Made by a program: the position numbers and the translations under genes. From Schmidtea polychroa (Eukaryota): a stretch of DNA of 64,000 nucleotides. Every line of letters begins with the position of its first letter. The first letter of the stretch is position 1. The notes beneath the pieces were generated by a model that made no database searches, had not been told where the DNA came from, and saw only the letters and a program-made list of their open reading frames with translations. Shown here in pieces: positions 11,879-42,600 of the stretch. The DNA is taken from contig CM097888.1 of NCBI GenBank assembly GCA_044892525.1, forward strand, positions 92,628,001-92,692,000, in the 5' to 3' direction.

Positions 11879-12605
11879 TCAATTCGAGGAGCTCTTCGTG
11901 ATCGTTGTCAACATCAAACTGATATATGAGGTCAACAGGTCATCCATTTTGTAACCCTAGGAAAACAAAATTAATGTTTGTGGTACTAATAAGGCTACCA
12001 ATGGCGTTTCGCACAGAAGTTTGCGGCCGTGAATCAGGTTGCCAATGGTCATGTTAAAATACGTATTTCCAGAACTCCAATTGCTAATGCTTGAGTAAGG
12101 ATAGTAGTCGAGGGTTTCCTAGAACATACCATTATTCGTTTTATAAATGTTTATAGCTCACTTTCGTTTTTGTATGAATAAGGTATACTCCATTTTTGTT
12201 GATCGCAATGAGAATTTTCTCCGGCACATTCACATTTGTTGATTGCTGTGATAAATTATACAATTTTATTATATATCTCCACTCCTTACTTTCACTTCAA
12301 AGAAGGCCGAGCCGAAAGTTGGCCATAGAAAAATAATTTTTAGAAAGGCAATTTTGGCATCGTCATCACTCATGTTGTGACTGAGATGATATTGATCAAG
12401 AACCTTCTATATCACGAGTAGTGCTAATACGACATGATCAAATAGTGCACTTACTTGCTGCAAGTCCGTTTGAGGATATCTGCTCAATACGTCGGAAGGA
12501 ATTAATAAATCCAGCGATCCTCTACAAATCCAATTAATAGTCAATGAAATTGATAAAATTGTAGACAGTATCAGCCCTAGTAGACCCTCGCAAAAAGACA
12601 CACGG

Positions 12606-12636
<31 letters not shown>

Positions 12637-18600: not shown

Positions 18601-21600
18601 TTGAAACTTCCTTCTTTCCAAATTTGTATAGCAGTCAATCTCCTTGTGTCCACGTAAGTGACATCTCTGGCATTGAATCGTTGAACATTCTCGCCGTACG
18701 AGGCCTTCAACTTCGCATGCCAAACGCGTCATTTTCTTTTTCATTTGGCATTCTCGACTAACATGACCAGTTTTTTTGCATGTCCAGCATTCCAATTGTC
18801 GGTTACTGACATTTCGCTGCTTGAAATTATTATTTCCGTTTACCATTCCTCTTTGAGCAACATCTCTGTAGCTTCTGTAGTTTTAAACAACCGGTGAAGT
18901 TTTCACAACATTAATATGGCCCATAATTTTGTTTACCTTTTCTAATTTCTTTATTGTCGCTTTTATATCTTCTGATGTTTTCAAATCTTTCATTTCGATC
19001 TCTTACACAGTTTGTAAGCAGGCATTTTTCTATTTCTTCTTCATCCCATTTGTGCGCTATTAATTTCTTTGTCATCTTTTAAATTTTCTCTATAAAAGTT
19101 TCGGCTGAATCTGATCCTTGTTCATAACTCGAAGCTTCTTTTAGATCATCCATTAATGATGTCGGTTTCGAAAATGCACATCGAAGTTTCTCTTCCATAG
19201 TTTTTCCTTCGGCTGCTTCATAATCTTCCATTAGCGATCTGTCAAGTAATGTTGTAGTTAATATTACCTGCATCCTAATTGTTGTTTTTGTCGCGCCAAA
19301 AAACCTTTGACAATCCTTGATAAAATATTCTAGATCATCGCCTTTGTGAAATTTCTCAGGCAATAGTCTGCTTATCAATAAATCCGTGGTCGTGGTCGCC
19401 ATGTTAGACGCAATTAAATTCAAATCTTCTTCAAGCATTTAATTTTATAGCAACTTCAAAATTGTGCCGTTTACTAGCGTATTTAAACACCGAGGCGTGA
19501 TAATTAATAATATTAATGTAATTACTGGTCATACATTTAATTGATTTAATTTAATATAATTTAATATAATATGATATAATTTAATATAGAATTTAAATAT
19601 AAAAATTTAACAGAAATAATTATTTCTACTAACTGATCTCACTTCTACCATTTAATCATAATAATTTTATATAGGGGTTTACTAACTCCTTACAATGTGT
19701 AAACAAATCACATCATAATTGGCATGATGAGTTATTATAAGGATAATTAATGGATAAGTAAACATTTCAACATATAAACAACATTCAATAATAATATTTA
19801 ATTGATATTTAATTATCACTTCATAATGATCAGAATCACATCGACAGTTTCCTTTTATCTATTTGTTCGGCCCATGTTGAAATCCTTGCAAACCATTTGA
19901 TATGGTTCCATAGTTACTTCTTACTTATTTTCTATCAAATTGTTTCATTGTCAGCATTTATGTCCATCTCACCATGATTTCACTCTCTAACCCTTCCAAT
20001 TGCTTCCTTATCTCATTGATGCTGTGATGATGGCAACCAAATGTCATCATTCTACTATTCAATTTCTGCATCATATATGATTCGAACATTCTCCTACGTA
20101 TCTATCACCTTCTGTTTCTTCCTTTATCATATCTTTCTAAGAGGTCTAGTCCTCATAAGTATCACAATCAGCACAATCCGTTTGCTTAACTTGTCAACTA
20201 TATCAAATATTTATTCTCCCTTTCCCAAAGCTATTGCAAAACCTTCCCATGGTTCATAGCATCGCCCAAGTTCAATTAATCCTTATTTCAGGCTCTATGA
20301 GCCCTTGATATTTATCAAACTAAAATAGACTCACTTGAACACTTTCATTTGGGAAATATATTTTATGTTGGATGAGCTTGCCCATTTGAACGGCGTTAAT
20401 TTCGATTGCATGAGGGGGATAGCGCCTCTGACCCAGTCTGGAAAGAACACAATTTATCTCTAGATGTTTACAAAACGATTTACTTCAAAGTTTTTTGTAA
20501 ACGAGTCTGACATTCGAGAGCTAGCGGAGAACTTGCGGACCTAAATACCTCGAGGAGTTCTCTATAAAGATTCGAGTTAGGGACCATGATACCAGTTGCA
20601 AGCCAGATTAATTCCCACCCAGCCTTTTCACTTTGACTATAGAAAGCATATAAAATCCCATCAAACAATCCTAAAAACTCACGGATTGGGATTAAATGTT
20701 ACCTGGGTTATCAACTGACAGTAGACCTCATCTTTCAGTATTTCTTGTTTCAAGCAGGGATCAAAAATAGATTCTACAATCTCAGTCGAGCTGTAATTCC
20801 TAGAAGGTTGGTCTCCCATGTAGATGAGAATGGCACTGAAACAGGATATTGCTTGTTGACAGAGATCCTCTTTATTCAATAATTTCTTTAGGAGAGGCAA
20901 CTTTAGCAGCTGGCGACTGTGCTGCCACAAATTGTCAGCAACTTGCTTACCTAGGCTCATGACGAATGACCTATTCCCACTAGCAGGAGTCCTAACGCAA
21001 TCAAATCCCATTTGTATAATTGAAATAAACATAATAAAGCATCAAACCTGAAATATATTTTACTAAATTCCTCCAACGTATGTTGATTCCCTTTCATATT
21101 GTTGCCGTTATTGCTAGGTCCGCCATCATACGCGTCTCCAAAGCTCCGATCACTAAACAAGGCAAGAATATTCTGGGAAGGGAAATTAATAATTGGCAAT
21201 ATGTAAACGATGTCAGCAGGGAAATCTCCATTCTCTTTCGTGCGATAATTCTCCCCATAATACCAATCAGATGTTGAAATTCCTCTCAGGGTGTCGTTGG
21301 TCTCCAATATCAACAGGTCGCCTTTCTCACAGGATAGAAAGGATAAATCTGGAAACCATAAATTCAAGCCTAATTAATAAATTTCCACGTAGGCAAATCA
21401 CCAGGTTTAGAGAATGCTTGCACCACAATTGCATAATGACTTCGCTCTTTGAGACCTTCAAGGAAAAATACAATTAAATCTCTAATATCTTCAGAATTGG
21501 CGCAGTTGAAGGTATAATTGCCTCCTTTCACAGTTGACAACGAAAGTGACTGTCCATGCAATCGGCTCGTGCTGAAAAAGTATATGAAATTCTAATTAAA

Positions 21601-24600
21601 TGGTTAATTATATTTATATTCATATTAATTATATTCATATCTAATTTATATTTAATCACCTACAAGATATACATGCATACTATTCCGCAGCCGCCACCGC
21701 AGCCGCCACCGCCGCTTATGCAGCTGCCGCAAATATACTAATATACTAAGACTTACTTAGAGGTTATGAAATTCATGGTCCTGAATGACTTTTATTAATA
21801 ACATTATGGTATTTGATACGACTTTGTTTNNNNNNNNNNNNNNNNNNNNNNNNNNNNNNNNNNNNNNNNNNNNNNNNNNNNNNNNNNNNNNNNNNNNNNN
21901 NNNNNNNNNNNNNNNNNNNNNNNNNNNNNNNNNNNNNNNNNNNNNNNNNNNNNNNNNNNNNNNNNNNNNNNNNNNNNNNNNNNNNNNNNNNNNNNNNNNN
22001 NNNNNNNNNNNNNNNNNNNNNNNNNNNNNNNNNNNNNNNNNNNNNNNNNNNNNNNNNCTGCTACAATTTCAGGGAAGGAGAGCTCAAGGTGGATGCGTTC
22101 ATTCGAATCAACGAGATAAACCCCGGTCCAGTTAACAGTAAATATAACTTCATTGGTATCCAAGGAGGGGCCTGAGAATTTGACGGCTTCATAAAATCTC
22201 GAAAAGAGCATTGGCCATTTAAGTCTTGCAAAAGTCACAATTTCTTCTTTCAATTTTTCATTCGAAATCGAATCTTTACTAGAAGTTTCATTTAAATTCT
22301 TCACCGCCTGAAACCCATAGGTAAAATATCCCCATGACGAACTCGTCCTCAATTACTTGATTGAGTAGGCTCAGCCAATATTTTTTCTTTTCTTTTGTCG
22401 TTCCGATGACGGACCGAGGAAGGTATTTATGGAGAATTTCCTCCGTCAAATCTGTCACGTTGTCGATCCTCAGTTGATAGGCGCACAATTTGCACATGTC
22501 CTTATCCTGCAATTGAAATTGGAAATATAATGTTTGAACTTCAGTATTCACATACGGTATCACATCGATATTCACCGAATTTGATGCCCCTCATGACCTG
22601 ATGGTAAATGAGATCTGTAGCAACACTGTCCTCACAAGCGCTATGCCAGGGCGTGAAAATCTCTTTGCGAAAAAATAATCTCCACTGTGCTTTTGATTCT
22701 ACTTGACCTTTTTCTTTAGCGAATTGTTCGCATTGACTAATTGCATCCATTACATGATCTCCACCACTGCCAATTGAGGAGACCTGTTATAATGTAGCAA
22801 TTACTAAGCAAATAATTATCTCTTTCTATAATGCTCAACCTCAATAGGCGAAGAGCCATATCAGTAATCAGCGATTTATTCGCAGACATTGACGAGTTGC
22901 ATATATCATATCTGCTGGAGAAAGTTCGGATAGTCCCCAAGATAAGAAGGTAATAAAAGTAATAAAAGGTAAATAAGAACAAGTACAATACTAGAGGTAT
23001 GAGGAAATCAAGGAACAACTGACTGATGAAGAGAAATGGAAGCTCCTAAACAGAATTCTCCTCAGCTGTAGCTAAGGGATAACCATAATGAAAGCGCTGA
23101 TTGGAAAGCTCAAATTTATTATCAAGGCCAAATCAAAAGGAAATATTCCTCAAAGCAATTTATTTGTCTGTTGATATAATCATTGATAACATTTAATTGC
23201 CCTCCTTATCAAGGCTATCAAGCATCGAGGGGTCACAAATATATTGATTATTCTATCATGGCAATATTGATTGGTCATAAATATATTGATTATTCTAGCA
23301 GTGCAATATTGATTGGTTATAAATATATTGATTATTCTAGCAGGGCAATATTGATTGGTCACAAATATATTGATTATTCTATCATGGCAATATTGATTGG
23401 TCATAAATATATTGATTATTCTAGCAGTGCAATATTGATTGGTCATAAATATATTGATTATTCTAGCAGTGCAATATTGATTGGTCATAATTATATTGAT
23501 TATTCTAGCAGTGCAATATTGATTGGTCACAAATATATTGATTATTCTAGCAGGGCAATATTGATTGGTCATAAATATATTGATTATTCTAGCAGTGCAA
23601 TATTGATTGGTCATAAATATATTGATTATTCTAGCAGTGCAATATTGATTGGTCACAAATATATTGATTATTCTATCATGGCAATATTGATTGGTCATAA
23701 ATATATTGATTATTCTAGCAGGGCAATATTGATTGGTCACAAATATATTGATTATTCTAGCAGTGCAATATTGATTGGAAACCGAGATTGTATTTGTGTT
23801 AAGTCAATATTTTTATATCATCAGCAATTTCCAGCAAAATTTGGAGGCAGATCGGAGGNNNNNNNNNNNNNNNNNNNNNNNNNNNNNNNNNNNNNNNNNN
23901 NNNNNNNNNNNNNNNNNNNNNNNNNNNNNNNNNNNNNNNNNNNNNNNNNNNNNNNNNNNNNNNNNNNNNNNNNNNNNNNNNNNNNNNNNCTCTCCATCAA
24001 TTGTGAAAGGAAAATTCATGAAAATTATGGTTTCCCCCCAAAAAAGAAAATGTCCATTCCTCACCTCATTCTCAGATAAAATGGTCAGCTTGGAAAATGG
24101 GGCCAAAACAAAATATTGTGAAATCAAAACTGAATGTTACCCAAATTCTTACTTTATCAAAAATGGCAATGAAAAGAGAAAATCCGAATTGATCCTTCAG
24201 GCAAATTTTCTGTGACAATATCGAGCATAATTCTTGGGCCGTTGACGCAGAATCCGCGAAAATCGTCTCCGTGTTGCCGTTCATACAAGCCACGGCGAGT
24301 ATTATTGGCTCTTTGTGTTTGATCGCCTTCAATTCTAACCAACTTGGTGGCTGATTTCGAGTTCCGTTTGAAAATGTTCGTTGCAACCGGAAAACAATAA
24401 ATTTCGCGTAATCTTTGAAATTCGTTTGAATAAAATTGCGCAAGGTCCTGACGAACTTTTCGGTCGGCGCAAAACAGCCAATACACAGGTTCAATAGGAT
24501 CAGACCTGGAAAATGAAGGATTACAAAGGGATACACGGGTCCTTTTACATACAACTGTGAGCCATATCACACACACACACACACACATGACAACTAAATG

Positions 24601-27600
24601 CTCCTTATTAACATGACCATACTGGTCACAACTCTATAAGGGTTACAGATATGGTCATTATTGCATTTAAACTACTATCACAACCTCCAATAATGTGATT
24701 TCAACATGTCTGCTGCGACACTGACACGCAGTGAGAGACGCCTCATAAAGCTCACAAATACGTTTTGCAGCTGATTTTCAGCAATGCATTCTATGCGATT
24801 AGGTCTCCGTTTGCAAGTCTCCTGAAATGCAAGGCTCGATCAATTCATATTAGCCCTTGTACCATATGAATCTCAAGGGATAAAATCTAGTGATCATGGG
24901 GCGATGCATTCAGTAATGAATGCGCCTTATTTTGATAAAGTGAACCTATTTTTGAAACTTGGCAAGTTCATGAGTAGAAGGTTCATACATGAACAATAAA
25001 CCCTAGAAAGCTCTTCAATTCATACGCAATTCAGTAACTAGGCGCCATGAACCTGACTAATGGGAAATATTTATAATATACAATCTAGAAGGATTCCGCA
25101 TGAGCAATAAGAGTAAATACGACAAATATATTATTCCCACCTCTACTCACGCTATCCAACTTCCCATTGTCCACCAACTGTTTGCAGATCTGACAATAGA
25201 TCTCATCTCGCAGCTCTGGAATTAGAATGCCATTTCCAATTATAAAATGCAATTTCTCTAAGTTTGAAGTCGGCCTCTCTTCTAATAAAGAACTCAAAGT
25301 CTTCGTATTCAGCGGATTCTCAGCATCCTTCAGATGATTGACAACTTCATCTGTGAACTTTGACTTCTTTTTCAGGGTTAAGGACACGATGTTCTTTCTG
25401 TTTGTCCTCATTGAGAGATTCTCGAATGGCATTCCATNNNNNNNNNNNNNNNNNNNNNNNNNNNNNNNNNNNNNNNNNNNNNNNNNNNNNNNNNNNNNNN
25501 NNNNNNNNNNNNNNNNNNNNNNNNNNNNNNNNNNNNNNNNNNNNNNNNNNNNNNNNNNNNNNNNNNNNNNNNNNNNNNNNNNNNNNNNNNNGCCTGGAGT
25601 GTAAAATAAATAAAGAATTACTATATTTAGAAACAGTATAAATAAAAATTACTGAAAATAAAAGATAGGTTTTATTAATTACTATTAATAGATTTAGGTA
25701 ATATATAGGAATATTTGATAATACTATTACTATATATAGTAATTATAAAATTACTATTAATATAATAAATAATTATAATGTGATATAAATACTGGTTCAA
25801 ACGAGAACCAAGGGACGATAAAAACATAGACGAGAAAATTGACGATAACTTGCGGACGAGAAAAACTGTCAAGAAAGTTCGAAAAGAAATTGAAACAATA
25901 ATTTAGAAAATTATTATCACTTTGAAAAAAAAACGAAAACGTGATTAGAGAATCACTGTGTTAATTATTTAATTTAGAAGTGCAACATTTACGATCAAAT
26001 TAGTTCATTATTGTGATTAAAGAATCACTGTGTTTATTTTAATTAATTTCAACGCAACTCCGAGTTGTTTAAATTGGATATAAACAATAGCCCACACACG
26101 AAGAAATTCCGGCTCCAATTTCAAATCAATATCAACGGAGAAATTCTACTATAAATTGATCATCAAATTAGTTGAGACGAAAAAAAAAGGAAAATCAGAA
26201 ATTAGTCGAGAGCTAAGAATATTGTCGTCACAGAATTGTAAAGAAGATTGGTCTACAACATTGTTTAAACATTCAGGTAGATTTGATTATCAAGGGATAA
26301 ACTAGTATCCCGTTAAATAGGTAAAATTAAAGCGAACACAAAGTATAGATCTTTTACTTTAGTGTTCCCTGGGAGCCTCAAAATCATTCCCTCTTACTTG
26401 CCCAACTCTTTTAGTCGAATTGCGATCGTTGTGCTACACAGGAGCCATCGATTTCTTGCAGGCTGTGGTAAACAGTAAGGATTAATAAATCCGTTTTCTT
26501 GTACTCTTTGTACATATATTATAAAGTTCGTTTTGTAAATTATAAAATACATATTTATAAACAGAGAAAGAGTTTGTTTTGTTTTTTTAACTCAGTAATT
26601 TAAATATTAAACGCGCAACCACATTAAATATAATTTATTTATATTCATTTATATCTTTTTTCATTTATTTAACCTATTGGAGTCATTTGTGTTAGGATCT
26701 ATTGTCCCCGTTTTTCGATCTTAACATTTTGGTGAGCCCGACGTGATCTAATTTACGGGGGGAATAAGAATTTTATTTATAAGAGGCAAACATCTTTTTG
26801 AATCATTGAGTTAAGAAATAGAAGGGTAATAAATTTAAGACCAGGTAATAGAAACCAGCAAATAATGGCAGAGATAAATAATTTACAAAATTTAAACGAG
26901 AATAATTTACAAAATAATAATGTGCCAGTAGCTCAACCACCAGCGGTAGATTTTATGAGATACCCAACAATTCCGATTAAACCATTTAGTGGAAATCCAG
27001 GGGAGTTTCCAGAATTTATGTCCGAATATTTTCAGTTAGCCAGAGCATTAGGATTCCCGGAACCGGTAATGATTTTGAGATTACCTTTATATTTAAAAGG
27101 GATGGCACGGGAAATATATAACGATGTTATAATAGCCGAGCATCCAGTTGAATGGAATGTATTACGATTAGCATTACAAAATAGAATATTACCGGGGGAT
27201 GCAACTAGAGTGCTGAGACAACAGTTTTATAACAGGCGACAAAATTCGGGTGAGCATGTTGGGGAATTTTCATATCAAATAATGATGTTGGCAGAGAGAG
27301 CATTTGGTAATAGGGCAGCCTGGAATGATGCAACTAGAGCATTAGTAAAAGATCAGTTTTGGTCTGGGTTATCGTCAGCAATGAGAAATGCACTCAGTTT
27401 ACACATAGGAGATAATTTAGAGGAATTAACTCGTAAAGCGTGTTTAATTGAGAGTAGCATTGAGAAGTCAAACAATTTTGCAATTAGTAGCAACAAGTCA
27501 GACATTGAGTGTTTTAATTGTCATAAAAAGGGACATATGTCAAAAGATTGTAAAAGTAGGAATAATTCTCCAGGGGACAAATTATGTACCAAGTGTGGGA

Positions 27601-30600
27601 GAAATAATCATGTGGCATCAAACTGTAGAATTTCGGACCTAAATTGTGAGAAATTTTGTGGAAAATTTGGTCATATTATGCGTTCATGTCCACAAAATCA
27701 GTTATCTAATAACAATGGTAGTGGCAACAATGGTAATAATCGATCAAAGCAGACAACGTTTGCAGTAAATTCAGACCACAAATTAACGTATTTGCAGCAG
27801 CTTGAATTAGAAATTCAAGAAGTAAGAAACAGGTTAGCAAGGCTAACAACAAATGAAACTGATGGGTACGATGAAAATGAAGGTGTTTATATGACGTCAG
27901 CCAGAAAAAGGCGAAATAAAAATAATTATGTAGAACTTGAAGTGTTGATGCTTCAAGAGAGTCCAAGGGAGGACAAAGAGGAAAAGACTATGGTCATGGA
28001 ACCAGAGGTCTGTGAGGGTTTACAGGTTTCACCCAGGAAAAATCTAGTGGCTGTGGCAATGGAGCCAGAAGCCAACAGAGAAATAGAAGGTTTACCGGTT
28101 TCACCAGTCAAAAATCGTAAGGCTATGGACATGGATCCAGTAGTTAATGAAATTGTTCCAACAGAAGTTTTGGAAAAAAGATGGGCTTCGGTCATTAAGC
28201 CGGAAGTTCTTCTAGCCACATCATCCATGCGAGGTGAGTGTGGTAGCGAACCAATAAAGGTTAGAGAAGCATCGAAAGAGGAAAGAAATCCCATCGATGA
28301 CTGTAGAAAAATACTATTACGCAAAAGCGTATGGCAAAGAGAAATGAGACAGAAATTAGAAAATATTCGTTTAAACCCTGTTAATGAGAATGAGGTTGAC
28401 AAAGTAATGGATATCATATCAGAGTTAGACAGAAATGAGGAATATTATCCAGAATTGAGAGAAATTCTGAGAAATATTGGCCTAAATTGGAAACAAAGAG
28501 AGAATCTGGAGGATTCTACCATTTTTGTATCTTTCCCAAAGGGTTGTTTTCGTAGATATACAATTAACCCAAGTGAAAAGGTAGAAGTATTGGCAAAGAG
28601 AGTTTCGGTGGTAAAACCTCAACAGAGATGCAAACTATACTTATTGGGAGAAAGATTATTAGAGGGAGAAACCTTGTTAGATTGTGGTATACTACCAGGG
28701 AAAAATATGGTTATAAAAGCAAAGTTTCACAAGGAAACTGTTACAGTAGTGGACTTGGATAATGTCCTTACTATAAGCGAGATTGAAATTGATCAATTAA
28801 ATCAAATATCAGCCGTACCACATAGATTGGGAATTGAACTGATGAAAAACCCAAGAGATGGGGAAGCCATTAAGATGATAATGGATTGGATACTGGAGTT
28901 GCGAATCCCAGTAGATACTCTTAGAGAGATAATGCCATTGGTGGTGCCTTTAGTAAAAGAGACATCACAATTCCAGACACAAGCAAAGATGCTGTTGATT
29001 AAAAATGGACATGCTATTAGACATTTGGAAGGTAGACAAGGTCCAGTGATGTTAGATATCAGGATACCCAGGAGAGGACACCTGATACAACAATTCTCAT
29101 GTTATCATAGGGTAAAGAAACTGAGAAAAAGGATATCAGAAATATTAAAAGAGTCATTCCTAATAATGATACATGGTTGTCAGGTGGATGACGACGAATT
29201 TCTAGTAGATGTTGGATGTTTTCCCAATGAGGAAACAGTTGTATTAATATTACTGGTAGAGTTTCCAGAGGATGAATGGGCAACTTTGAGATTGCCAGAT
29301 AATGCTGAAATGGAGGATGAAACAGTACATCCAGAGCGAAAACATTTAGACGGGAATACTCATCAGGAACCCGTAACTACAGTAGATTTAGATGAAGAGA
29401 TAGATAAATATCTCAAGGAACTTGATAACACTGAAGACGAGTTGGTCGAAATATTTCCTACAGAGGAAGATAATGAAGTACAATTAAATCGAGATGAAAC
29501 AAACATCGGAGCTAGTACATCGCGACAAGCCGAGCCACCAAGAGAAAGAGTGAGCCCGAAATTAGTAGAGAATAAAAAGAAAAGGGAGAGAAGGGGTAGA
29601 CCGAGGAAAAGTCAAATGAACCCACCTCCAAGAGAACTTCTAAAACCAGTTACAATACAAAATGTAACTAAGCAGGCTCTAGCAGGGATAGCTAGCCAAA
29701 TCGATAAAAGCGTTGGAGACGCTAGTGATAAAACGGAAACATGGAAAAGACTGAATCAAATCTTACGACTGATTAAGCCCGATTGGCAAATCAAGAAAGA
29801 TAAAAGTGTTAATGTTGACAAAATTGCAGAAAAAGTCAAGAAAGCTATGGAAAAGATTCCAGGAAGCACTACGGAACAGGAGATGTTCGAAATAGCAGGG
29901 CAATTCATAGATGAAGGCCTGACGAAAGGGAAAATGATAACGATTCTAGCCTTAATGTTTAAAAATGCATTGAGCATAATTAAAGATGATTCGTCGAAAA
30001 TTCCAGCAGCCATAGACAAGCTGACTGATATCATCGAAGTGAATTTCAGAACATGGATGACTGAGCACAAGTTTTGGGATATAAAAGAAACGAAAGGAAA
30101 ATATGAATTAAATGAAGAATTGTTGACAGAAAATATTTCAAGTAGTCCACGGGGAACAGGTGGATTTACTAGTTGGATGATGATGTTGTTGGTAATGATG
30201 GGAATACTGCGACAGACAAATTCCCTAACGGCATATGATTGTAGTGAACCAATACTATCGCGAATCTACTCATTAGTTGACACAGTGGAATGCAAGGAAG
30301 CATATCCAGATAAAGTTGCAAAAAGGGAAGACGTAGAATATCATGTTTATCAGCAAACAGAGTTTTACAGAACCAGAGTGAGGGAATGTCGAATACAGAG
30401 AGCGACGTTCGAATATTACTGTGGATCGAATAGTTATTCAGCATTTTTAGGAGCTAAACTCATTCCTATACCGTTAATCATCCCACCAGAGGATTGTGTA
30501 AATGCTTTCCGGTCAAAAACAGTCAAAATAGATCAGGAGGTAACAATTACCGCGGAAGAGGGGAAAAAGTTGGGTATAACTATTACCCGGGGTGGACCGA

Positions 30601-33600
30601 TAGCAGAAGATGGTTCTTGTCATGGTAGAAAGAAAGTTAGAGGTTCTAATGTAGTAAGCTATGTGGTAACAGTTGAGGACTACACAGTAGAGCTGATAGA
30701 GTACGAAGGAACTTTCGAAGTATCCACGGGAAAAATGATGTCTCATCCAGAATGCAACGTGAAATATGGTTATTGTAAAACCAGTTTAGCAGTATTAACG
30801 TACCAATCAATGAGAGATTTTTGTGATTTAGGATACCTGAAAAAGGTAGTATTTTCAAGGCTAGATGGGAAGAGTTTTACGTCTCAGGATTCACAACAAA
30901 GTGGTTGGGGAGACAAGATAACTCACAAAACGAAAAAGGAAGTAGTACCGGAGAAAAGCACAGCAGTAGTATTAGTCTCCAAGGACCCAACAGATGCAAT
31001 TCGTTTAGTCAGAAAGAAACAGACAACGAAATGTGGTGTACCAATATTTGAAACCAACTACAAGGGAATATACTTAGCATACAAGTATGTTCCAGCAGCA
31101 GAATCATTGCATCTATCAGATATTAAAATAGCCAAGTATATCAATAATAAGATTGATTTCTTGTATCATGATCTGCAGAAACAATTATTAGATGTCTATC
31201 AGGAAGTGATCCTGAACGACTGTCGTTTGAATCGGGAAATAATACGGAATAGATTAGCAATATCTATAGCTAATCCGGATCTAATAATGCCAATGTTGAC
31301 AGAGGAAGGAACATTCGGCAGAATTTTGGGCGAAGCAATTTATAGCTATCAGTGCAAAGCAATAGAGGTGGAAATTACCAAATATGATCGATGTACATTG
31401 GAGTTACCAGTGAAATATAAAGGAAAATTGAGATTCCTGATGCCAGTATCACACCAGCTATTAAAGGAGGATACCTCACCATTGACAGCAATTTGCAATC
31501 CAGCAATGTCACCATTATACAAAATTAACAATATTTGGATTTCGTTGCCAGATAGAAAACCGCCTTCAAAACCAGTTGAAGTGCTTCAAGCGACAAAGTT
31601 AGAAACTAAAATGGAGTTTCAACCATTAAACGAGATGTCAAAAGGAGGAGTATATACTCCGGAAGATATTGAAGAAGCTCGGAGAGCAATCGTATTTCCC
31701 CAAATCAGAAATAGGGGAGTGACGGAAATAATAACAAGAATCTATCAATCATATGATGGAAAACCGGACTATAACTTATTATTTGGACCAGAACATTATA
31801 AACAAGCTGCATCCAATGTAATACGGAAAATCTGGGGTAGATTTACAAGCTTTGGCATTTTTGTAGCAGGATGTTCAGGTATATATGCAATAGTGATGAT
31901 ATTGAAAATAATCATATCGCAATTATTTTCTACCTATAGTATCTTCAAGATCGGGGGATGGTCTTGGAAGTTGCTACTAGGAATGTGTCCAGTTTGTGCA
32001 GATTTTGCAGTATTTCATCATCATAATAAAGAGATTAAAAGAATGAAGAGACAAACTATAAAGAAGCATGAGTTAATAATGTATGAACCTAGTCATCGAG
32101 ACGATGACAATTCTGACGAGGGAGGTAACCTAGAGGGCTATGAGACTTCAGACAACACCTCAATAAAACCAGACAACAAAAAACCGAAATTTCAAAATTT
32201 TGAAAACAGTACTTTACAACAGTACCCTGTTAAAGCAAAAAGGAGGAAACGGCAGGAGTGGCCCGTAAATTACTTGTCTCCATACGAGGGTAGAAAAAAG
32301 ATAATACCAGAACGAGTTGAAGAGGAAATGTTAAAGAGGCTCGAGTTTAGAACGAATACAGATATATCACCATCTACCTCATACCCAACGTATAAAATGA
32401 AGTTCGAGACAATGCCACCCTTGGGTACATCAGTATTTGAGATGGTACCGAAATATCCATTTAGCACGTTGGAACGGCTAAAGGAAGAGTATAAAGATGA
32501 AATAAAATCAGAAAATGACAAAGATAGTGATGATCAACAAAAGTTCAGAGACAATATTCGAGGAATCTCAACAATATTAATGGTCAATATGGGTAAAAAG
32601 ACTCATAAACCTACGATTAAACTAAAAGTTAACAGGCATACGGTACATGCCATTATTGATTCAGGATCAGATTTGACATTGATCGAAGCAAATTTATTAA
32701 ATGAAAAAGAATTACAAGCAATAGTGCCGACATTACTTGTTGCATCGGGAGCAAATGGACAACCTATCAATGTTATCGGAACATTAGATTGCGAATTAAG
32801 GTTGTGTGATCAAAAATTTAGACACGATATCAAGGTCACTAGACAATGTATGGCAGAATGTATCGTGGGAATGGATATATTGAAAAAGTTAAAAGATATT
32901 GTATTTGATTGTGCAACAGGTGAATTAGTGAAAATGACTGGTAGAAAACGGAAAACCTACAGTGTGGATGTAGTGTTTTTGGATAGAACGGTGACAATAC
33001 CACCGAGGACCGAAACAGTTTGTTTCGTAGCAACACACCAAGAGGTGGAAGGAGATGTTATTTTCGAACCCAGTGAGCAGTTCGTAAATAGGTATAAAAC
33101 GCCTATGGTGCAAAACTTGGCAACAGTACGGGGAGGAAGGATCCCGATTAGATTAACAAATCTAGCGAGCAAATCATTGAGATTATACCCAGAGACTAGA
33201 GTGGGTAAAGTGATACAACTTTCTAACATGCAGAAAGAGCATGAATCGATATTAGCAGTAGAAGAGGATGAACGAGATCCTGATATCGAATATTACGACG
33301 CACCGAGCTGCGATAGTAAAGCTTTATCTAGAAAAGAAAATATCAGAGTCAATCAATTATTACGTAAATATGACCAAGTTTTCGCAAAACACGAATATGA
33401 CTTAGGGCAAGTTAATATTCTAGAGCATGAGATTAAATTAACAGAAAATAAACCGATAAAAATTCGCCCGTACAGAATACCTCAAAGCATACAAGGGTCC
33501 GTTGACAAACAAATTAATGCAAAAATATAATATAATCAGACCCAGTAAATCTCCATATTCCTCACCTTTGGTGGTTGTAGCTAAAAGAGACGGCTCAGTC

Positions 33601-36600
33601 AGATTATGTAATGACTATAGGAAATTAAATGAACAAACAGTTAGTGATAATCACCCGCTACCTTTGCTAGACTACATTTATGATAAAATGAAAAATTCAA
33701 AGTTGTTTACTGTGATGGATGCACAGAAAGGTTTTTATCAAATAAAGATGAGCGAAGACTCAATTCCTATGACAGGATTTTCTACAAGTAGTGATCATTT
33801 TGAATACTTAGTAATGCCGTTTGGATTAAAAGGAGCCCCTCCAACTTTTCAGAGAGCAATGAATATCATGTTGATGGATGCACATCACGCAATGGTATAT
33901 ATAGACGATATTATCATCTTCTCGGAAGATTTAGATAAACATTTGGAACATCTAGAAGACATTTTCAAAAGATTGATTATGGCAAACCTGAAAGTAAAGC
34001 CAAGCAAATGCAAATGGGCAGAATCGGAAGTGATTTACGTGGGGCATGTAATATCACACGATTGCGTAAGACCAGATCCGGCGAACACGGATAAAGTAAA
34101 GAATTTCCCACAACCAGTGAATGTAAAACAAATCAAAGGATTTTTAGGGTTGACGGGATACTATCGGAAATTTATACGAAATTTTTCAGCAATAGCTTTT
34201 CCTCTAACTACCTTAGAAAAGAAAGGTATAAAATTTTTATGGGGAGAAGATCAGCAACAGGCATTCGATAAGTTAAAAGATGCACTATGCAAACCACCAA
34301 TTCTACGATTTCCAGATTTTAAAAGACAATTCATGGTGATGACCGATGCATGCACAAGAGGTATAGGTGCCGTTTTGGGACAGAAAGACGAAATTGGCGA
34401 TGAGTACGCAGTAGCATATGCAAGTCGTGGATTGAAGCCACACGAAAAAAGTTATGCTGTAATAGAATTGGAAGCATTAGCATTAGTATTTGCAGTGGAA
34501 AAATTTAGTCATTACCTATGGGGCAGAAAGATAATTTTCTATACGGATCATAGACCATTGCAATGGCTGTTAAAACATAGGGATGAAGCATCAAAATTAG
34601 TAAGATGGGCATTGAGATTACAGCCATATAATATCGAAATAGTATATCGTAAAGGTAAAGCTAATGGTAATGCAGATGCATTATCACGAATGGAACAAGA
34701 GCCTGAGTTAGAAGATATAAAGGAAGGAAGATTAGAAGGAACAATCTTCATGCTAACAAGAGAGGCTAACACTTTGAGCGATATAGTAGAAGCGCAAAAA
34801 AATGATGACGAAATCAATATGATCAGACAAGCTATAGAAGCAAAGGCCATACCAAATGAATTTCAGAAATATTGGGAGAGACATAAAGATAAATTCATAT
34901 TGGAAGAAGGGCTAATCAAATACGTTGAATCAAGGGATAATGTAATATTAGTACCAAAGAAATACAGAGAATCACTATTATTACAATACCACGACGGAGC
35001 ACTGGGAGGACATCTCTCAGTTAGACATACACTGTCAAGATTAAAAATGAAATACTTCTGGCCAGATATGAAAGATGATGTTAAAAAGTGGTGTCAATCA
35101 TGTAAGATATGTATAACCAGAAGGAACACAGGCAGGAAACCACATGTTCCATTGAAACCAATGCCAGTACCGTCCTCGCCAATGGAGATGACTGCTATGG
35201 ACGTACTAGGGCCGTTTAAAGAATCAAAAATGGGAAATAAATTTATCATAGTATTTTGCGATTACTTAACCAAGTGGCCCGAAGCATTCCCAATTCCGAA
35301 TCATAAGGCAGACACAATTGCCAGAATCTTTGTAGAACAAATAGTATTCAGATATGGTGTTCCAACAAAATTACTTACCGACAGAGGAAAGGATTTCATG
35401 AGTAATCTGTTAAAAAGTATAAATGATTATTTTGGTATTTTAAAATTAAATACCTCACCATACCATCCACAGACGGATGGATTGGTAGAAAGGTTCAATG
35501 GAACCTTGGCAAACATGTTATCATCATACGTAAACTCAGGTCAGACGGACTGGGATGTACACATACCATCGTGTTTGTTTGCGTACAGAAATGCTGTTCA
35601 TTCAGTAACAGGAGAAACACCTTTCTATCTGATGTATTTAAGGCATAACAAGATGCCAGTAGATCTTATATTTTATCCGAAAGCTTCACAGAATTGTGAT
35701 GAGGAAAATTACTTATTCGAGATGAGAGAGAGAATGCAAGAAGCCTGGGAAAAAGCAGGTTTGAACATTCGTTATAACCAAGAAACGATGAAGGAATATC
35801 ATGATCGTAAAGCGAAGGATCATGGGTTTTTGGTAGGAGATTATGTCATGTTAGAAGGACATTACAACAAAAAAGGTTTATCTCCAAAATTAATGAGAAA
35901 TTACAAAGGGCCGTATCAAATTTTGAAAGTCACAGAAACAAATTTAGTCTTGCAGTTAGTGACAAACAGAAAAGCAGAACCGATAATGGTTCATGCAAAC
36001 AGATGTAAAAAGATAGCCCCACCAGAAAAGGAGAAACCAAAATCAGAAATCGATGAATTCGAAATAGATAAGAAATCGAAAAAGAAAACGTTGGAATCAT
36101 ACAAAAGTATCCTAAAAGGACAACCGGAACGATACCCTTTACGATCTCGGCAAGTACCGAAAACAGTTACATTTCTAGCAGTGATTAGTTGTGTTATGAT
36201 GATTGGACAAGCATTCGAGGTATTCACACCTAAAGCCAGTCAACATCCAGATATCGAATATCAACGAACAGATAGAGCGTTCAGATTTCATTTAACGAAT
36301 ATACAATGGCATAGATATGATTTATATTTGGTAGCTGCTGAAAGAGGGATATCATTTCACTTGAATACATGGGATCGAGTAAAAGTAATAGAAGGACTTA
36401 TGCCGAATACAAGTTATCTATTAGAAATCAAAACATTTTTTGCAGATCCAAACGTTTTTGCAGACGGAGGAGATTGTGTAGATAAAGCAGCATGGATTTT
36501 GAAGACTGCAAAATTTACCAAAAAAGTAGAGATTTCATATCTCGGGCAGATAGTAAGATTTACTCATCCACGGTGGAAAAGAAATGACACATCTTCCACT

Positions 36601-39600
36601 CACGATTGGAGGACGAATAATAAAATTGCGCTAATCGTCATATTAGAAAACGACCAGCGAGTCGAGAGATTAGTGCTCAACCATGCGTATCTAAGTAAAA
36701 GATGGAAAATCAAACCAGATACCGTGATAAAAGCGAATATTTCGTATTTGGAATTTACGGAGAGAACCGGTTGGTATACAATATATCAAGAAATAGTAAA
36801 TCTAATACCTCCCACAAAGGGAGAACTAACTAGCAAAGAAGGAAAGGCTAGATTAGTAAATATTCCTGGTTGTAAAGGAATAAATGCTTTAGATTGGTTT
36901 AGTATTAGAAAGGTAGCGAGTGTAAAACAGCCCCGCATAACTAAAATAATTAATAATTGTAGTTGTCAAAATACGTTAAAGGGGGCAGCGAGGGAGAAAA
37001 CGCCAACATGGCTATTGTTAATTATGATAGGGGGAGTAATTTGCATGATTTTAATTTTGCTCTTAACCACCCTATGGATGTTTAGATTAAATATACGAGA
37101 TATGCGTTATTGGGAAAATATTTACGAAACCGAGGTATAGGGGGAAAGTCTCACCATATACTAGGAAGTGTAAATATATATAGTTATTTATTTTATATAT
37201 ATGTTATTTATATTAGTATGTAGACTAATGTGGGCTCAAATGAGCATTGGTAAAATCAGACATCAGCGTATGTCGACTTTGGTTACCCTGCGAGGGTCTA
37301 TCACGAAAGTGATAAAAGCTGTTAATTATCTTATTTTTAGAAAAATGAATTATAGCAGAGAATCAAAGCCGCCAGTCAAGGCAAATCGACGACACCCATT
37401 AGCAACGTACAATTCCCAAACTCGAGTGGAAACTGAAGTGTATAGCACCTATAAAGAAGAGTATGTATATCGGTTCATCGGAACCACGGTAGCAGCAAAG
37501 ATGAATCACCTCACCTCAAACTATTGGTATTATCCCAGGAGAGTGGATATTCCAAATGACTTCAAATTTCCAGGAGGGCCTCGAAGGCAAATGATGGTAA
37601 CGGTTATAAATAACCAAGGTAGATTAAAATTGGCGGAACTATGTAGAGAGTATGGTTCAAGTCCGAAAGTAGAAAACATTTGGATCCATGCGATCAATAG
37701 GCCATTTACTGTGTTTATGGCGGGTTTAGAGCTACCTGTTGAATTAGAAAAACAGTGTACTCTGGAGATATACCACGCTGATGGACGAGAACGGAATATT
37801 ATGATCCAGGCAGCGGCGGTGGACACCATAATCGTAGTGGAAATCTTAGACTTCAGGAAACCATACTCTATAGTTAGCAAAAACGAGCCAACTTGGATTT
37901 ATAATGTAAATGAAGCTGATATACAGCAGTGTAAATCATTCGTGAGGAAGAAGTTAACCAAAGCCGAGGAGGATGAGGCTACAATTTTCATATCGGCAGG
38001 TTTTGCCAAATCCCGAATCGAATTGAAGGAGACAATTATCCAAATCGCAATTATGGATATGAGAGGAAATAATTTATTGAGTGCGATAGTGACTCCCAGA
38101 GATCCAGTAAAACATTACCAAACGCACCAATATAAGTTAAAAGAACCCGACATTAGAGGAAATCTCGATGAAGACGATTGTCATCATCTGATAAGAAAGA
38201 TCTGCGATAAGAAAATACTGGTAGGTATTTTACTTAAAGATCTGATCTCGGTAGCCAATCTACCAGTGCAGCGAATTTTGGGTATTCGTGACCTTTCGGC
38301 AAATAAACTATTGGAAACCAGAGGAGTCCCAAAGATCCATGGTCATTACAGTTTGGGATTCCTGACAAAAACTTTCCTGCGTACGGTTCCCGGAGAACCA
38401 AGGAATTTAGTGGTCACCAATGAGGCACTGGCAATACGTGCTGTTTATTTACATATCAGAAACGAATGGTTAGACCATATCACGATACCTCAGGAGGAAT
38501 TCATTTCCGCAACTACAGCAGCGATAGTTGAACAGGAAATGACGCAGAAGAGGAGATTACCTGAGCAACCATCTACATCAGAGCAACCCCAGCCCAAGAG
38601 GAAATCACCTGTGGATCTACCACCGCCTCCAGCCATATCTATTGGAGAAGAAGATGAATATGAAACATGTGCTAGTGAAATAGAGACAGCAAAATCACCT
38701 AAACAACCATCAGGAGCTGCCTATCAGCCAAAGGATAAATCGGATAATGCGGTCAGAAAAGAAAATCCAGAAGGAGGCAAGGTGAAAAAGATGTTAAAGA
38801 AAATGTTACCCATTAAAAGAGACAAATCGAAGTTAAAGTTGAAGAAAGTTGTTAAACCGTCGGAAGGAACGACAAAAGATACACCCAGCGGTTCGGAAGA
38901 TAGGACTATTAAACCTCAAAAGATATTCAGCGAACCAGATGATGACATTATGGAAGTTGCCTTTCAACCTCCGGTTAAGGAGATGCAGGAAGCAATAAAG
39001 GTTAAATCTGAACCTGTGGTAAGGCAGAAATTGTTAAAGATTGCCAAGGAGAATATCATCAAGAAACCAGTTTCGGTTGATGTGGACGGTTTCGAACCAA
39101 TGTGGTACAAACGTCCGGATAGTAAATGGAAACCCAGAGCGAAGGAGTATGACTGCCAACCAGTCACGAGAATGGCAGTCAATAATAACCAAAAATATGA
39201 TGTTTATGACGTAGACGGGATCCCTTACGTGGTGTCTACAGTCATATTAACAAGTGCTCTGGATGGTAAGCCTTTAGCAGTGAGTTTTGAGCCAGATGTC
39301 TTACAGAAGAGGAAGAAGAAGTTGTTGCAGCAATACGTCATTGCGAATAGCTACAGCACAAAGGAAGTGCACCTTTACAAAGTTCCAGACCCAGATCCCG
39401 ATGATCTGGATATCTAACCCAAGAGCGTTGCCACCCAACATGTGTCGTCAAATTCAAATGTGTACAAAATAACTTAACTATTATTTGAGTTGTGTTTTTC
39501 AGTGTTCTGACATTCATTATTTGTGATCTGAAACATTTATATTTTTTGTGTTTTGTCTTATTTGATTAATTTTTATGTTTTATTGTAATACTGTTTACGA

Positions 39601-42600
39601 AAAGCCTTTCCTTAGTCTTGGTTTTGTCTTGTTTTCGAGACGAAAATCTTTTAGGGGGTAAGACTTGTTAGGGATAGGCCTGGGGCCTGGAGTGTAAAAT
39701 AAATAAAGAATTACTATATTTAGAAACAGTATAAATAAAAATTACTGAAAATAAAAGATAGGTTTTATTAATTACTATTAATAGATTTAGGTAATATATA
39801 GGAATATTTGATAATACTATTACTATATATAGTAATTATAAAATTACTATTAATATAATAAATAATTATAATGTGATATAAATACTGGTTCAAACGAGAA
39901 CCAAGGGACGATAAAAACATAGACGAGAAAATTGACGATAACTTGCGGACGAGAAAAACTGTCAAGAAAGTTCGAAAAGAAATTGAAACAATAATTTAGA
40001 AAATTATTATCACTTTGAAAAAAAAACGAAAACGTGATTAGAGAATCACTGTGTTAATTATTTAATTTAGAAGTGCAACATTTACGATCAAATTAGTTCA
40101 TTATTGTGATTAAAGAATCACTGTGTTTATTTTAATTAATTTCAACGCAACTCCGAGTTGTTTAAATTGGATATAAACAATAGCCCACACACGAAGAAAT
40201 TCCGGCTCCAATTTCAAATCAATATCAACGGAGAAATTCTACTATAAATTGATCATCAAATTAGTTGAGACGAAAAAAAAAGGAAAATCAGAAATTAGTC
40301 GAGAGCTAAGAATATTGTCGTCACAGAATTGTAAAGAAGATTGGTCTACAACATTGTTTAAACATTCAGGTAGATTTGATTATCAAGGGATAAACTAGTA
40401 TCCCGTTAAATAGGTAAAATTAAAGCGAACACAAAGTATAGATCTTTTACTTTAGTGTTCCCTGGGAGCCTCAAAATCATTCCCTCTTACTTGCCCAACT
40501 CTTTTAGTCGAATTGCGATCGTTGTGCTACACAGGAGCCATCGATTTCTTGCAGGCTGTGGTAAACAGTAAGGATTAATAAATCCGTTTTCTTGTACTCT
40601 TTGTACATATATTATAAAGTTCGTTTTGTAAATTATAAAATACATATTTATAAACAGAGAAAGAGTTTGTTTTGTTTTTTTAACTCAGTAATTTAAATAT
40701 TAAACGCGCAACCACATTAAATATAATTTATTTATATTCATTTATATCTTTTTTCATTTATTTAACCTATTGGAGTCATTTGTGTTAGGATCTATTGTCC
40801 CCGTTNNNNNNNNNNNNNNNNNNNNNNNNNNNNNNNNNNNNNNNNNNNNNNNNNNNNNNNNNNNNNNNNNNNNNNNNNNNNNNNNNNNNNNNNNNNNNNN
40901 NNNNNNNNNNNNNNNNNNNNNNNNNNNNNNNNNNNNNNNNNNNNNNNNNNNNNNNNNNNNNNNNNNNNNNNNNNNNNNNNNNNNNNNNNNNNNNNNNNNN
41001 NNNNNNNNNNNNNNNNNNNNNNNNNNNNNNNNNNNNNNNNNNNNNNNNNNNNNNNNNNNNNNNNNNNNNNNNNNNNNNNNNNNNNNNNNNNNNNNNNNNN
41101 NNNNNNNNNNNNNNNNNNNNNNNNNNNNNNNNNNNNNNNNNNNNNNNNNNNNNNNNNNNNNNNNNNNNNNNNNNNNNNNNNNNNNNNNNNNNNNNNNNNN
41201 NNNNNNNNNNNNNNNNNNNNNNNNNNNNNNNNNNNNNNNNNNNNNNNNNNNNNNNNNNNNNNNNNNNNNNNNNNNNNNNNNNNNNNNNNNNNNNNNNNNN
41301 NNNNNNNNNNNNNNNNNNNNNNNNNNNNNNNNNNNNNNNNNNNNNNNNNNNNNNNNNNNNNNNNNNNNNNNNNNNNNNNNNNNNNNNNNNNNNNNNNNNN
41401 NNNNNNNNNNNNNNNNNNNNNNNNNNNNNNNNNNNNNNNNNNCAGCTTCCTCTGCAGCTTTCAAAATGTCTTGCTTATTGAACTGTCGGCCAAGAGATTG
41501 ATATATTTTTGTCATTATAGGAACTGAATTCGCTTGAGATGTCTGACTCTGGTTCACCAAAGGTTCAGGTAGATCTTTCATAAACCTCAGAATGGCTATC
41601 CACACTGCCAGTGCTGACTAGAGAAGAAGATATTAAAACAATCATATTACTGGACTGCAATATATATACTATTTGATGGTTGGGGTTCGAATGAAACAGC
41701 AAAGGTTTCCTTAAAGGTTTTCGTGAGAAATTCGGATCAGAATCCTTCTGGAAATAAGTGGCAGCAAATTTTGTGAATGTGAATTCTGAGACGTCCTCAT
41801 CGAGAATGTTGACCAAATAATCAGGCATCGTTGTAGCAAATACCGAGCTGACATCATTGAGAGCGTTCATCCGTGACATCTCCAGATCCTGGAATGCTCT
41901 CGGTGCATGGGACAATGAATTTGAGAGAGATTTCACGCTGTAGCCATCAATCGAGCCGAAAATCTCATCAAGCTAAAATAAGAAAAGAAATCAAATTTCT
42001 GTGGAAATTTCATTCTAGTTCAATTAGGCGTTGTCAGTAATTTGATTCAGTGTCCATGAATTATTAATGAAATCAAGCTGAATTATGAATGAGCAAGAGT
42101 TGTTTTACCATCTCTGATTCATCCACTGGCTGGTTGCGCCTCCTCTCTGCCTCTGCAATCCTCTGTTTCATGTTCCTATTGTCCTTGATTTGCTGCTGGG
42201 CCTCTGCTAGTGACTGGCTGTGGATTGCATTGAGCCGCACCTGAATTGCAATATACAGCATCATCACTCGGCATCCTTGCTAGAACATTTCATAGCTACT
42301 CAAGCATTACAAGAAACCAGGAAAAGAGAAAGTACGCCAACAAAAGAAATAAAATCACCGAATTTTTATTTCAAATATCAAATGTTAAATGAAATCATTT
42401 ATTTATTAGTGAGACTGGAGGGGAAGCTTTATGAATTTGGTTGTACTTTCTGTTATTGTTAGGCACTTAATGCCCCTATATAACTGAGAGCCCCCCCCCC
42501 CACCCTCCCCTCCTCCTCCGTTCCTTATATCAATGCTACATGGGAAATTATCAGTAGAGAATCCTTTGATAGAAATCTGTAACGGAGAAAATGTTTTTAT

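Follow-up and report, generated by a model that had tools for sequence, protein, structure and literature searches.

A predicted class III envelope protein encoded in frame between Gag and protease in a planarian Ty3/gypsy errantivirus

A 15.2-kb unit of Schmidtea polychroa belongs with the planarian Burro/Smed_errantivirus elements, as a Ty3/gypsy errantivirus that is young and multicopy. Within the 64,000-nucleotide stretch of DNA that we analysed (the window), sequence and modelling support the assignment of positions 30165-32024 to a predicted chuvirus/gB-type (class III) envelope protein (Env), in frame between Gag-UBL-UBL-BCL2 and the protease. Made within one frame that runs from Gag to a second membrane protein, this Env is probably a class III fusogen, serving an enveloped particle that would move from cell to cell. 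The order in the element is Gag-UBL-UBL-BCL2-Env-PR-RT-RH-IN-membrane protein, and its features in the window, all on the forward strand, are as follows.

25592..26726, + strand: 5' LTR, visible part (all 1121 visible bases match the 3' LTR; ...CA end at 26726)
26730..26747, + strand: primer binding site, complementary to host tRNA-Trp(CCA)
26865..27700, + strand: Gag, with its capsid region plus three CCHC zinc knuckles (zf-CCHC E 4e-11, Retrotrans_gag E 0.052)
28512..29291, + strand: two putative ubiquitin-like segments (UBL; the first from weak sequence matches, the second from cross-family conservation only)
29652..30101, + strand: BCL2-like domain, directly 5' of the Env signal (Pfam Bcl-2 and profile matches)
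30165..30224, + strand: Env internal signal sequence (alignment; predicted cleavage before [LM][TV]AYDC)
30225..31850, + strand: predicted class III (chuvirus/gB-type) fusion glycoprotein ectodomain (PF24664, Foldseek; 542 aa, 14 Cys)
31851..31955, + strand: Env transmembrane (TM) segment (hydropathy peak 2.27), then a cytosolic linker of ~200 aa up to the protease
32592..32921, + strand: aspartic protease (DSG at 32652; RVP E 6e-7, gag-asp_proteas E 9e-7)
32952..33251, + strand: conserved protease-RT spacer segment (28-36% identity across families), at the dUTPase-like position of Burro
33460..36129, + strand: RT, RNase H and integrase (RVT_1, RT_RNaseH, Integrase_H2C2, rve)
36130..37140, + strand: in-frame post-integrase type I membrane protein (sequence features, conserved in five subfamilies; FN3 leads)
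37174..39417, + strand: ORF3, with an ISG20/REX4-like DEDDh exonuclease domain at about 37924-38493 (profile matches, alignment)
39650..39665, + strand: polypurine tract, immediately 5' of the 3' LTR
39666..40805, + strand: 3' LTR (TG start at 39666; end masked by N, ~40819 by offset)

The assignment to Ty3/gypsy rests on the TG...CA LTRs, primer site, polypurine tract, CCHC Gag and PR-RT-RH-IN order (Pfam), and the RT_RNaseH/RT_RNaseH_2 and Integrase_H2C2 matches are consistent with gypsy. The reverse complement of the primer site equals the 3' end of host tRNA-Trp genes called by ARAGORN, and the same site is present in subfamilies A', C and D. The outer LTR ends of the window copy are masked by N (the 5' LTR would start at ~25573, from the 3' LTR offset), and sister copies carry LTR pairs that are 99.5-100% identical and flanked by 4-bp target duplications. 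The family has multiplied recently.

The original prediction of a chuvirus-like class III glycoprotein was supported by Pfam PF24664 (Monjiviricetes_fusion), which matched Env at 273 bits where the cut-off is 27 (E 5.2e-81), and by structural searches. In Foldseek, a low-confidence, single-chain AlphaFold model (mean pLDDT 47, pTM 0.28, 8 sequences) retrieved a chu-like virus GP as its best match (E 4.7e-20) and HSV-2 gB at E 5.9e-7; top matches in both libraries were all class III, but TM-scores were only 0.13-0.26 (0.13-0.18 for gB). Because of the poor model and these low scores, what the fold searches provide is local 3Di similarity and not a superposition. Sequence searches of solved structures with Env gave no match.

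The anticipated Cys-rich ectodomain of about 540 aa corresponds to the 542 aa found here, in which 13 of the 14 cysteines are invariant in all eight aligned sequences (36-93% identity). The motifs named beforehand all lie where they were placed and in one frame: FTSWMMM at 30165, LTAYDC at 30225, YYCG at 30414, a ten-residue motif at 31032, CTLELPV at 31392, GGVYTPEDI at 31644, FGIFVAG at 31851 and GWSWK at 31956. An internal signal and a TM segment are likewise supported, the former by small residues at -3/-1 before [LM][TV]AYDC in 5/5 subfamilies and the latter by hydropathy. The Env ectodomain of the window's family contains no N-glycosylation sequon, which is odd for a glycoprotein, and no furin site. 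Its gene is under strong purifying selection (dN/dS 0.038), similar to that on the protease (0.036).

In the window copy, env lies inside a stop-to-stop frame at 26802-33530 (2,242 aa), 3' of the Gag zinc knuckles and 5' of the protease DSG, as the original prediction had it. This frame stops just past the protease, and RT-RNase H-integrase is in another frame (33460-37140); the break falls near 33,510-33,530, at the RT start, where sister copies are continuous. Because the frame breaks before RT, the window copy is unable to make Gag-Env-Pol as one chain. A single Gag-Env-Pol frame of 3,516 codons is present in 10 of 12 near-identical sister copies, and in each of four further subfamilies one frame spans the coding region, at 3,334-3,513 codons. 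At none of the 60 loci examined was env placed elsewhere: the protease follows it on the same strand in all 60 and in the same frame in 53. A search that scored 68 of 2,581 candidates and fetched 30 leaves room for stand-alone env copies. A protein search at polyprotein lengths returned three matches, and three outside proteins have the same order, which the unrelated public protein P0001 holds within 3,181 aa; a search with env alone, covering 7,998 candidates 341-1,085 aa long, gave no match at E<=0.001. The frame break of the window copy, together with a Gag (first Met at 26865) whose knuckle region is shorter than in the sisters, might suggest local rearrangement or misassembly, but this is refuted by the other copies, as the order is common to all these loci, five subfamilies and the three outside proteins, and we give it next to no chance. 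Contigs of run X1, guessed to be RNA, covered 29 of 30 bins with no splice-like joint, an observation uninformative on expression or splicing.

The domains that precede the in-frame env are identified by weak but concordant matches. For the first ubiquitin-like segment these are to Pfam ubiquitin (E 0.0026, below cut-off) and PDB polyubiquitin (E 0.26). The BCL2-like domain (dN/dS 0.11) matches Pfam Bcl-2 at E 0.008 in the window and at E 0.0008 in family D, with no match reaching the cut-off, and a five-family profile ranked Bcl-xL, Bcl-2 and BOK at the top of the PDB (best E 0.002). No Pfam match to a dUTPase was found in the protease-RT segment.

In mosquito BEL/Pao elements the glycoprotein gene is reportedly positioned after pol. 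Their chuvirus-derived glycoproteins represent capture of the same class by an LTR element, of a superfamily other than Ty3/gypsy (Dezordi et al., 2020, PMC7642597). The gag-env-pol order, which the original prediction had called unusual, stands as an observation; the novelty thereby implied does not, since the order has been published (PMC6431247, PMC13524379). Planarian Burro elements were described in 2019 as the first case of an in-frame env between gag and pol, in a polyprotein with Gag and its CCHC knuckles, ubiquitin/SUMO-like and BCL2-like domains, env and then PR-RT-RH-IN; that env, between BCL2 and protease, matches arthropod and fish mononegavirus glycoproteins (PMC6431247). GAG-ENV-POL gB-type errantiviruses were catalogued in 2026 from Nematoda, Bryozoa and Platyhelminthes (Chary and Hayashi, eLife, PMC13524379), and like them the window element has env between gag and pol and a signal/TM-flanked ectodomain with conserved cysteines.

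Burro/GYPSM1 shares the anatomy of the window element, with UBL and BCL2-like domains before an in-frame env, but exceeds 30 kb and encodes 4,873-5,140 aa, against 15.2 kb and ~3,500 aa here; it carries MATH, BIR and ankyrin cargo, to none of which the window element has Pfam matches, and a dUTPase-like domain between PR and RT where the window element has its conserved segment (Arkhipova and Yushenova, 2019, PMC6431247). Because of its 15.2-kb length, the 3,516-codon family frame and the missing MATH/BIR/ankyrin matches, we regard the window element as a compact relative and not a Burro. Smed_errantivirus_4 and the other Platyhelminthes GAG-ENV-POL gB-type elements have the gene order, gB-type env and ~15 kb span in common with it, and the 252-aa env domain I-II of Smed_errantivirus_4 aligns with the window env ungapped at ~164/252 identities (65%, by eye; PMC13524379 supplement 2). 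Judged by sequence, the window family is the counterpart of Smed_errantivirus_4, but a distinct, diverged family; the env start of family B resembles that of Smed_errantivirus_2 (PMC13524379). The main text of that paper mentions neither BCL2, FN3/fibronectin, exonuclease, polyprotein nor Burro, and it gives the Smed elements no primer tRNA; that of the window element is tRNA-Trp.

The post-integrase membrane protein begins with an RYPLRS motif, followed by a signal, an ectodomain of 259 aa (36214-36990) that contains 4 sequons and the motif L-x-x-N-x-x-Y twice, a TM segment and a short tail ending YETEV-stop; a PDZ-type T-x-V/L C-terminus is found in five subfamilies, and dN/dS is 0.21. The ectodomain is likely FN3-type. 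It gave no Pfam or PDB sequence match, but FN3 Atlas leads of 0.85-0.91 were obtained, and 2 of 6 profile matches are FN3-repeat proteins. With a model of the family D tail (pLDDT 40; not the window's own tail), the top Foldseek matches were tandem FN3 (E 5e-4), and VIA gave a best Z of 6.8, mixed with C2 and YEATS. HHalign detected no homology of the B/C/D-type tail ectodomains either to the A-type ones or to P0001, so a common origin rests on position, RYPLRS-like motif, topology and C-terminal motif only. An A'-C tail identity of 67% was disregarded as an apparent end-gap artefact. This protein appears to be unpublished: our literature search found none described, nor anything on FN3 with integrase in planarian or LTR elements, and section 7 of the Burro description mentions neither such a protein nor a DEDDh ORF3 (PMC6431247), both present in the window element; Burro figures or supplements (Grohme et al., 2018; Sacco et al., 2022) could already show one.

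ORF3 (dN/dS 0.034) was identified with a four-sequence profile, which matched ISG20L2 at E 4.6e-9 and also SDN1 and ISG20. The catalytic D-E-D-D-H residues are present in families C and D and replaced in the window's family and A', and the exonuclease was not found in the 5.6 kb 3' of the family B frame. Rotifer LTR elements likewise have a DEDD-family 3' exonuclease as third ORF, but theirs is DEDDy and replaces env (Rodriguez et al., 2017, PMC5408684). That of the window group is ISG20/REX4-like (DEDDh in C and D, with degenerate catalytic residues in the window's family) and occurs together with env. No ISG20-like ORF3 with lost catalytic residues was found in the literature on such elements.

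The shared frame predicts that Env is made 1:1 with Gag, as originally proposed. LTR elements require Gag in excess of Pol, which favours a reading in which splicing or processing of RNAs yields the working proteins, Env does not equal Gag 1:1 and the one frame reflects genomic arrangement only; ORF3, too, has no obvious route to translation from full-length RNA. We consider this very improbable, as five subfamilies whose env genes are 40-93% apart all keep an open frame from Gag through BCL2, Env and protease to Pol, which a splice-only scheme would not require. For a polyprotein made as one chain, the four hydrophobic segments (Env signal, Env TM, second signal and second TM) suggest four passages across the ER membrane, which would leave Gag-BCL2 and Pol cytosolic and Env and the second ectodomain lumenal. 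Host signal peptidase is predicted to free the Env N-terminus, and Gag-BCL2 may stay anchored through the signal segment, by analogy with tail-anchored BCL2 proteins. Pol would be tied to the Env tail until cut by the element's protease, and a single membrane would thus bring together Gag, Env and Pol with no need for a Gag-Pol frameshift. The most likely part of the second membrane protein would be in attachment, or in sorting to a domain of the cell surface.

Env might instead be kept for fusing or bridging neighbouring cells or internal membranes, with capsids passing from differentiated to stem cells and no free virion. The selection on env is equally compatible with free virions and with cell-cell fusion, the PDZ-type end would suit junction targeting, and BURRO1 of S. 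mediterranea is de-repressed after smedwi-2 loss in differentiated tissue and not in neoblasts (PMC8532177), but the closest relatives of Env are virion glycoproteins, and we regard such a role as unlikely. An Env that serves as the fusogen of an enveloped particle is the reading we prefer; our literature search found no report of particles, fusion or infection for these elements. As a tentative extension, possible but on balance doubtful, these flatworm elements would be two-glycoprotein retroviruses with a flavivirus-like polyprotein of four crossings, in which a gB-type fusogen, an anchored Gag-BCL2 and an Env-tethered Pol are joined by a separate FN3-type protein for attachment, which evolves fast and whose PDZ-binding end would direct budding towards cell junctions, with a herpes-like division between binding and fusion.

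Since the env layout is already published, by itself it extends a known planarian group by one family. A signal-cleaved Env would part Pol from Gag, and packaging would therefore have to differ from that of textbook Gag-Pol elements. Should the second surface protein, kept in all five subfamilies, prove to be an attachment factor, it would account for the way in which a gB-type fusogen reaches the right cell. Planarians, in which pluripotent stem cells take the place of a germ line, are a workable model for soma-to-stem-cell spread.

The original prediction had placed a chuvirus-like envelope gene (env) between gag and protease, and every motif on which it relied is found at 30165-32024 in a single reading frame. 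The internal signal and transmembrane region that it proposed are both present, and the ectodomain, described as Cys-rich and of about 540 aa, spans 542 aa with 14 cysteines, 13 of which are invariant in all eight aligned env sequences (36-93% identity). Its chuvirus-type identity is borne out by a match to Pfam PF24664 (Monjiviricetes fusion glycoprotein) at 273 bits (cut-off 27; E 5.2e-81). Contrary to expectation, env of the window's family has neither an N-glycan sequon nor a furin site.

The AlphaFold model of the ectodomain, built from a shallow alignment of the same env sequences, is poor (pLDDT 47, pTM 0.28). When it was searched with Foldseek, the best matches among viral structures were chu-like, qin- and xinmovirus glycoproteins (top E 4.7e-20) and those in the PDB were herpes gB (top E 5.9e-7) and baculovirus gp64. 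These matches support the predicted class III assignment; their TM-scores are low (0.13-0.26), so that they favor the class short of structural proof.

The gene lies in a 15.2-kb Ty3/gypsy LTR element with a polypurine tract directly 5' of the 3' LTR and RT, RNase H and integrase downstream in gypsy order. Both LTRs are identical over the visible 1,121 bases, their outer ends being masked by N.

Features of the element and of the surrounding myosin VII-type gene
11960-25435, minus strand: MyTH4-FERM exons (two MyTH4-FERM blocks) of the myosin VII-type gene
26730-26747, plus strand: primer site, complementary to the 3' end of host tRNA-Trp(CCA) genes
26802-33530, plus strand: stop-to-stop frame holding env (2,242 aa), with Gag zinc knuckles at its start and aspartic protease just before its end
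30165-30224, plus strand: hydrophobic, signal-like segment of Env
directly after the 30165-30224 signal, plus strand: Env ectodomain, in the same reading frame
31851-31955, plus strand: Env transmembrane segment, in the same reading frame
37174-39417, plus strand: ORF3, with an ISG20/REX4-like exonuclease domain (E 4.6e-9)
43515-54529, minus strand: motor and IQ exons of the myosin VII-type gene

The window copy is inserted, in antisense orientation, into an intron of the myosin VII-type gene, whose introns also house several other repeats. Further features of the window are a Penelope-like element (47838-51098; RT and GIY-YIG at 48514-50451, minus strand) flanked by 604-bp inverted repeats of 99% complementarity, a decayed second gypsy element (16234-18882, minus strand) with protease, RNase H and integrase pieces split by stops, and an exon (7611-8165, plus strand) matching a DNA polymerase delta subunit OB-fold domain. 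The primer tRNA-Trp(CCA) genes form a large tandem array with 284-bp spacing (L107, from 55.02 M onward on G000 C4), with 821 pattern matches genome-wide.

The predicted gag-env-pol order, with env between the Gag zinc knuckles and protease in one frame, recurs across copies and subfamilies. When the BCL2-env-protease stretch served as a DNA query, with 40 of 463 candidates scored, it returned at least 41 matches, 35 across the full 3.1 kb; the env profile alone (68 of 2,581 candidates scored) uncovered a second family. Protease lies 3' of env on the same strand in all 60 loci fetched, 30 picked by the query holding both genes and 30 by the env profile alone, and shares its frame in 53. The frame of the window copy is broken near 33,510-33,530, where RT starts, and its Gag is shorter than in near-identical sister copies; all 12 sisters are open over 6.1 kb around env, including this site, and 10 carry a single 3,516-codon Gag-Env-Pol frame (one of the others is internally deleted, one broken). 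Four other subfamilies, A', B, C and D, with env 93%, 43%, 40% and 40% identical to the window's, show the same order in single frames of 3,513, 3,334, 3,419 and 3,437 codons, and env precedes protease in three public proteins, one a full Gag-Env-Pol of 3,181 aa. Misassembly of the window copy is ruled out by this repetition in 60 loci, sisters, subfamilies and public proteins. In two of the public proteins, P0002 and P0003, several aspartic protease domains stand in tandem after env, and RT is absent.

Between the window's family (A) and A', the one pair compared (Nei-Gojobori), dN/dS is 0.038 over the 542 Env ectodomain codons, like that of protease (0.036), RT (0.023) and integrase (0.017). 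By such sequence criteria Env is functional, and the arrangement is real, intact and selected. Among the copies fetched, those of families A, C and D have LTR pairs 99.5-100% identical and 4-bp target duplications, so insertion was recent. Synonymous distance to A' (26865-39414 against L065/L066) is 0.15-0.27 in Gag, UBL, RT and RNase H and 0.6-2.2 in BCL2-Env-protease and integrase-tail-ORF3, a mosaic which suggests that subfamilies have exchanged entire modules by recombination. Three head-to-tail copies share LTRs at 14,218-bp spacing (L087-L091, G000 C2), with a similar tandem in family C (L102-L103). An internally deleted copy (L083-L084, G000 C4; LTRs 99.9% identical) has a 2,818-codon frame of Gag-Env-protease plus part of RT joined to the end of ORF3, and is possibly a mobilized non-autonomous form retaining env. 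Several family A copies (among L061-L064, L077-L082 and L092-L093) have flanks within (AAT)n microsatellites, which suggests a target preference.

For the planarian Burro elements, Arkhipova and Yushenova (2019; PMC6431247) described a polyprotein with an in-frame env between a BCL2-like domain and protease. Elements of gB type with GAG-ENV-POL order have been catalogued by Chary and Hayashi (2026; PMC13524379) from Nematoda, Bryozoa and Platyhelminthes; Schmidtea mediterranea accounts for six. The Smed_errantivirus_4 env row there aligns gap-free with the window's env (~164 of 252 residues identical, counted by eye), so the window's family is its counterpart and the host is probably a planarian. 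The element was rejected as a Burro, since it is half as large and gave no MATH, BIR or ankyrin matches; it is a compact relative. The env arrangement belongs to an already known kind of element.

The Gag-Env interval holds two ubiquitin-like segments and a BCL2-like domain, whose matches are weak and below Pfam cut-offs, yet concordant. The catalytic motifs of ORF3 are intact in families C and D. The window's family has lost them, although its ORF3 is still conserved (dN/dS 0.034 against A', one pair). The open frame 5' of the first Met (26802-26864) encodes a conserved [YI]-[NK]-L-R-[SP], present also in L071, L100 and L102, four families in all, which hints that translation may start further 5'. 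This motif resembles the RYPLRS motif found after integrase and the foamy virus Gag nucleosome-binding motif.

Past integrase the frame continues in all five subfamilies: RYPLRS is followed by a signal, an ectodomain (259-336 aa) with many N-glycan sequons, a TM segment and a short tail. The five C-termini (ETEV, ETEV, ETRL, ETWV and ETFV) all fit the class I PDZ-binding pattern [ST]-x-[VLI], at a chance of 0.024 per end from composition, though they represent no more than two clearly independent lineages. Among proteins from a tail-profile search, two distant ones also end T-x-V, an end the profile itself included; the tail of P0001, the third public protein, does not fit. Several leads tentatively suggest an ectodomain of FN3 type: paired L-x-x-N-x-x-Y motifs, Atlas neighbors with FN3 and TM (0.85-0.91), two FN3-repeat proteins among six tail-profile matches, and, for the family D model (pLDDT 40), best Foldseek matches to tandem FN3 (E 5e-4) and mixed VIA matches (FN3 with C2 and YEATS, Z ≤6.8). 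Pfam and PDB sequence searches gave no match, and HHalign found no homology when A-type tails were compared with those of B/C/D type. On the envelope side the tail changes fastest: it is 60% identical to that of A', with a dN/dS of 0.21 (one pair, Nei-Gojobori). The last 178 codons of this membrane protein recur in each ~2.88-kb unit of a satellite (G000 C3:106.49-106.52 M and 107.05-107.23 M). We found no published description of this protein in the literature covered, which excludes Grohme et al. 2018 and Sacco et al. 2022.

The single frame has four hydrophobic segments, and the chain would be threaded through the ER membrane four times; a splice-based scheme is very improbable. Signal peptidase, for which the Env signal offers small residues at -3/-1 in all five subfamilies, would free the Env N-terminus and leave Gag-UBL-UBL-BCL2 anchored by that signal, while protease, RT and integrase would hang from the Env tail and the second signal until released by the element's own protease. 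Env trimers would fuse an enveloped particle, or the donor cell, with a target cell; Env probably serves particle entry, and direct cell-cell transfer is an unlikely use. The second membrane protein may help attachment or sorting, and BCL2 and ORF3 may blunt host death and RNA defenses. The value of the element lies in its second surface protein and in how a retroelement polyprotein with four predicted membrane passes is processed.
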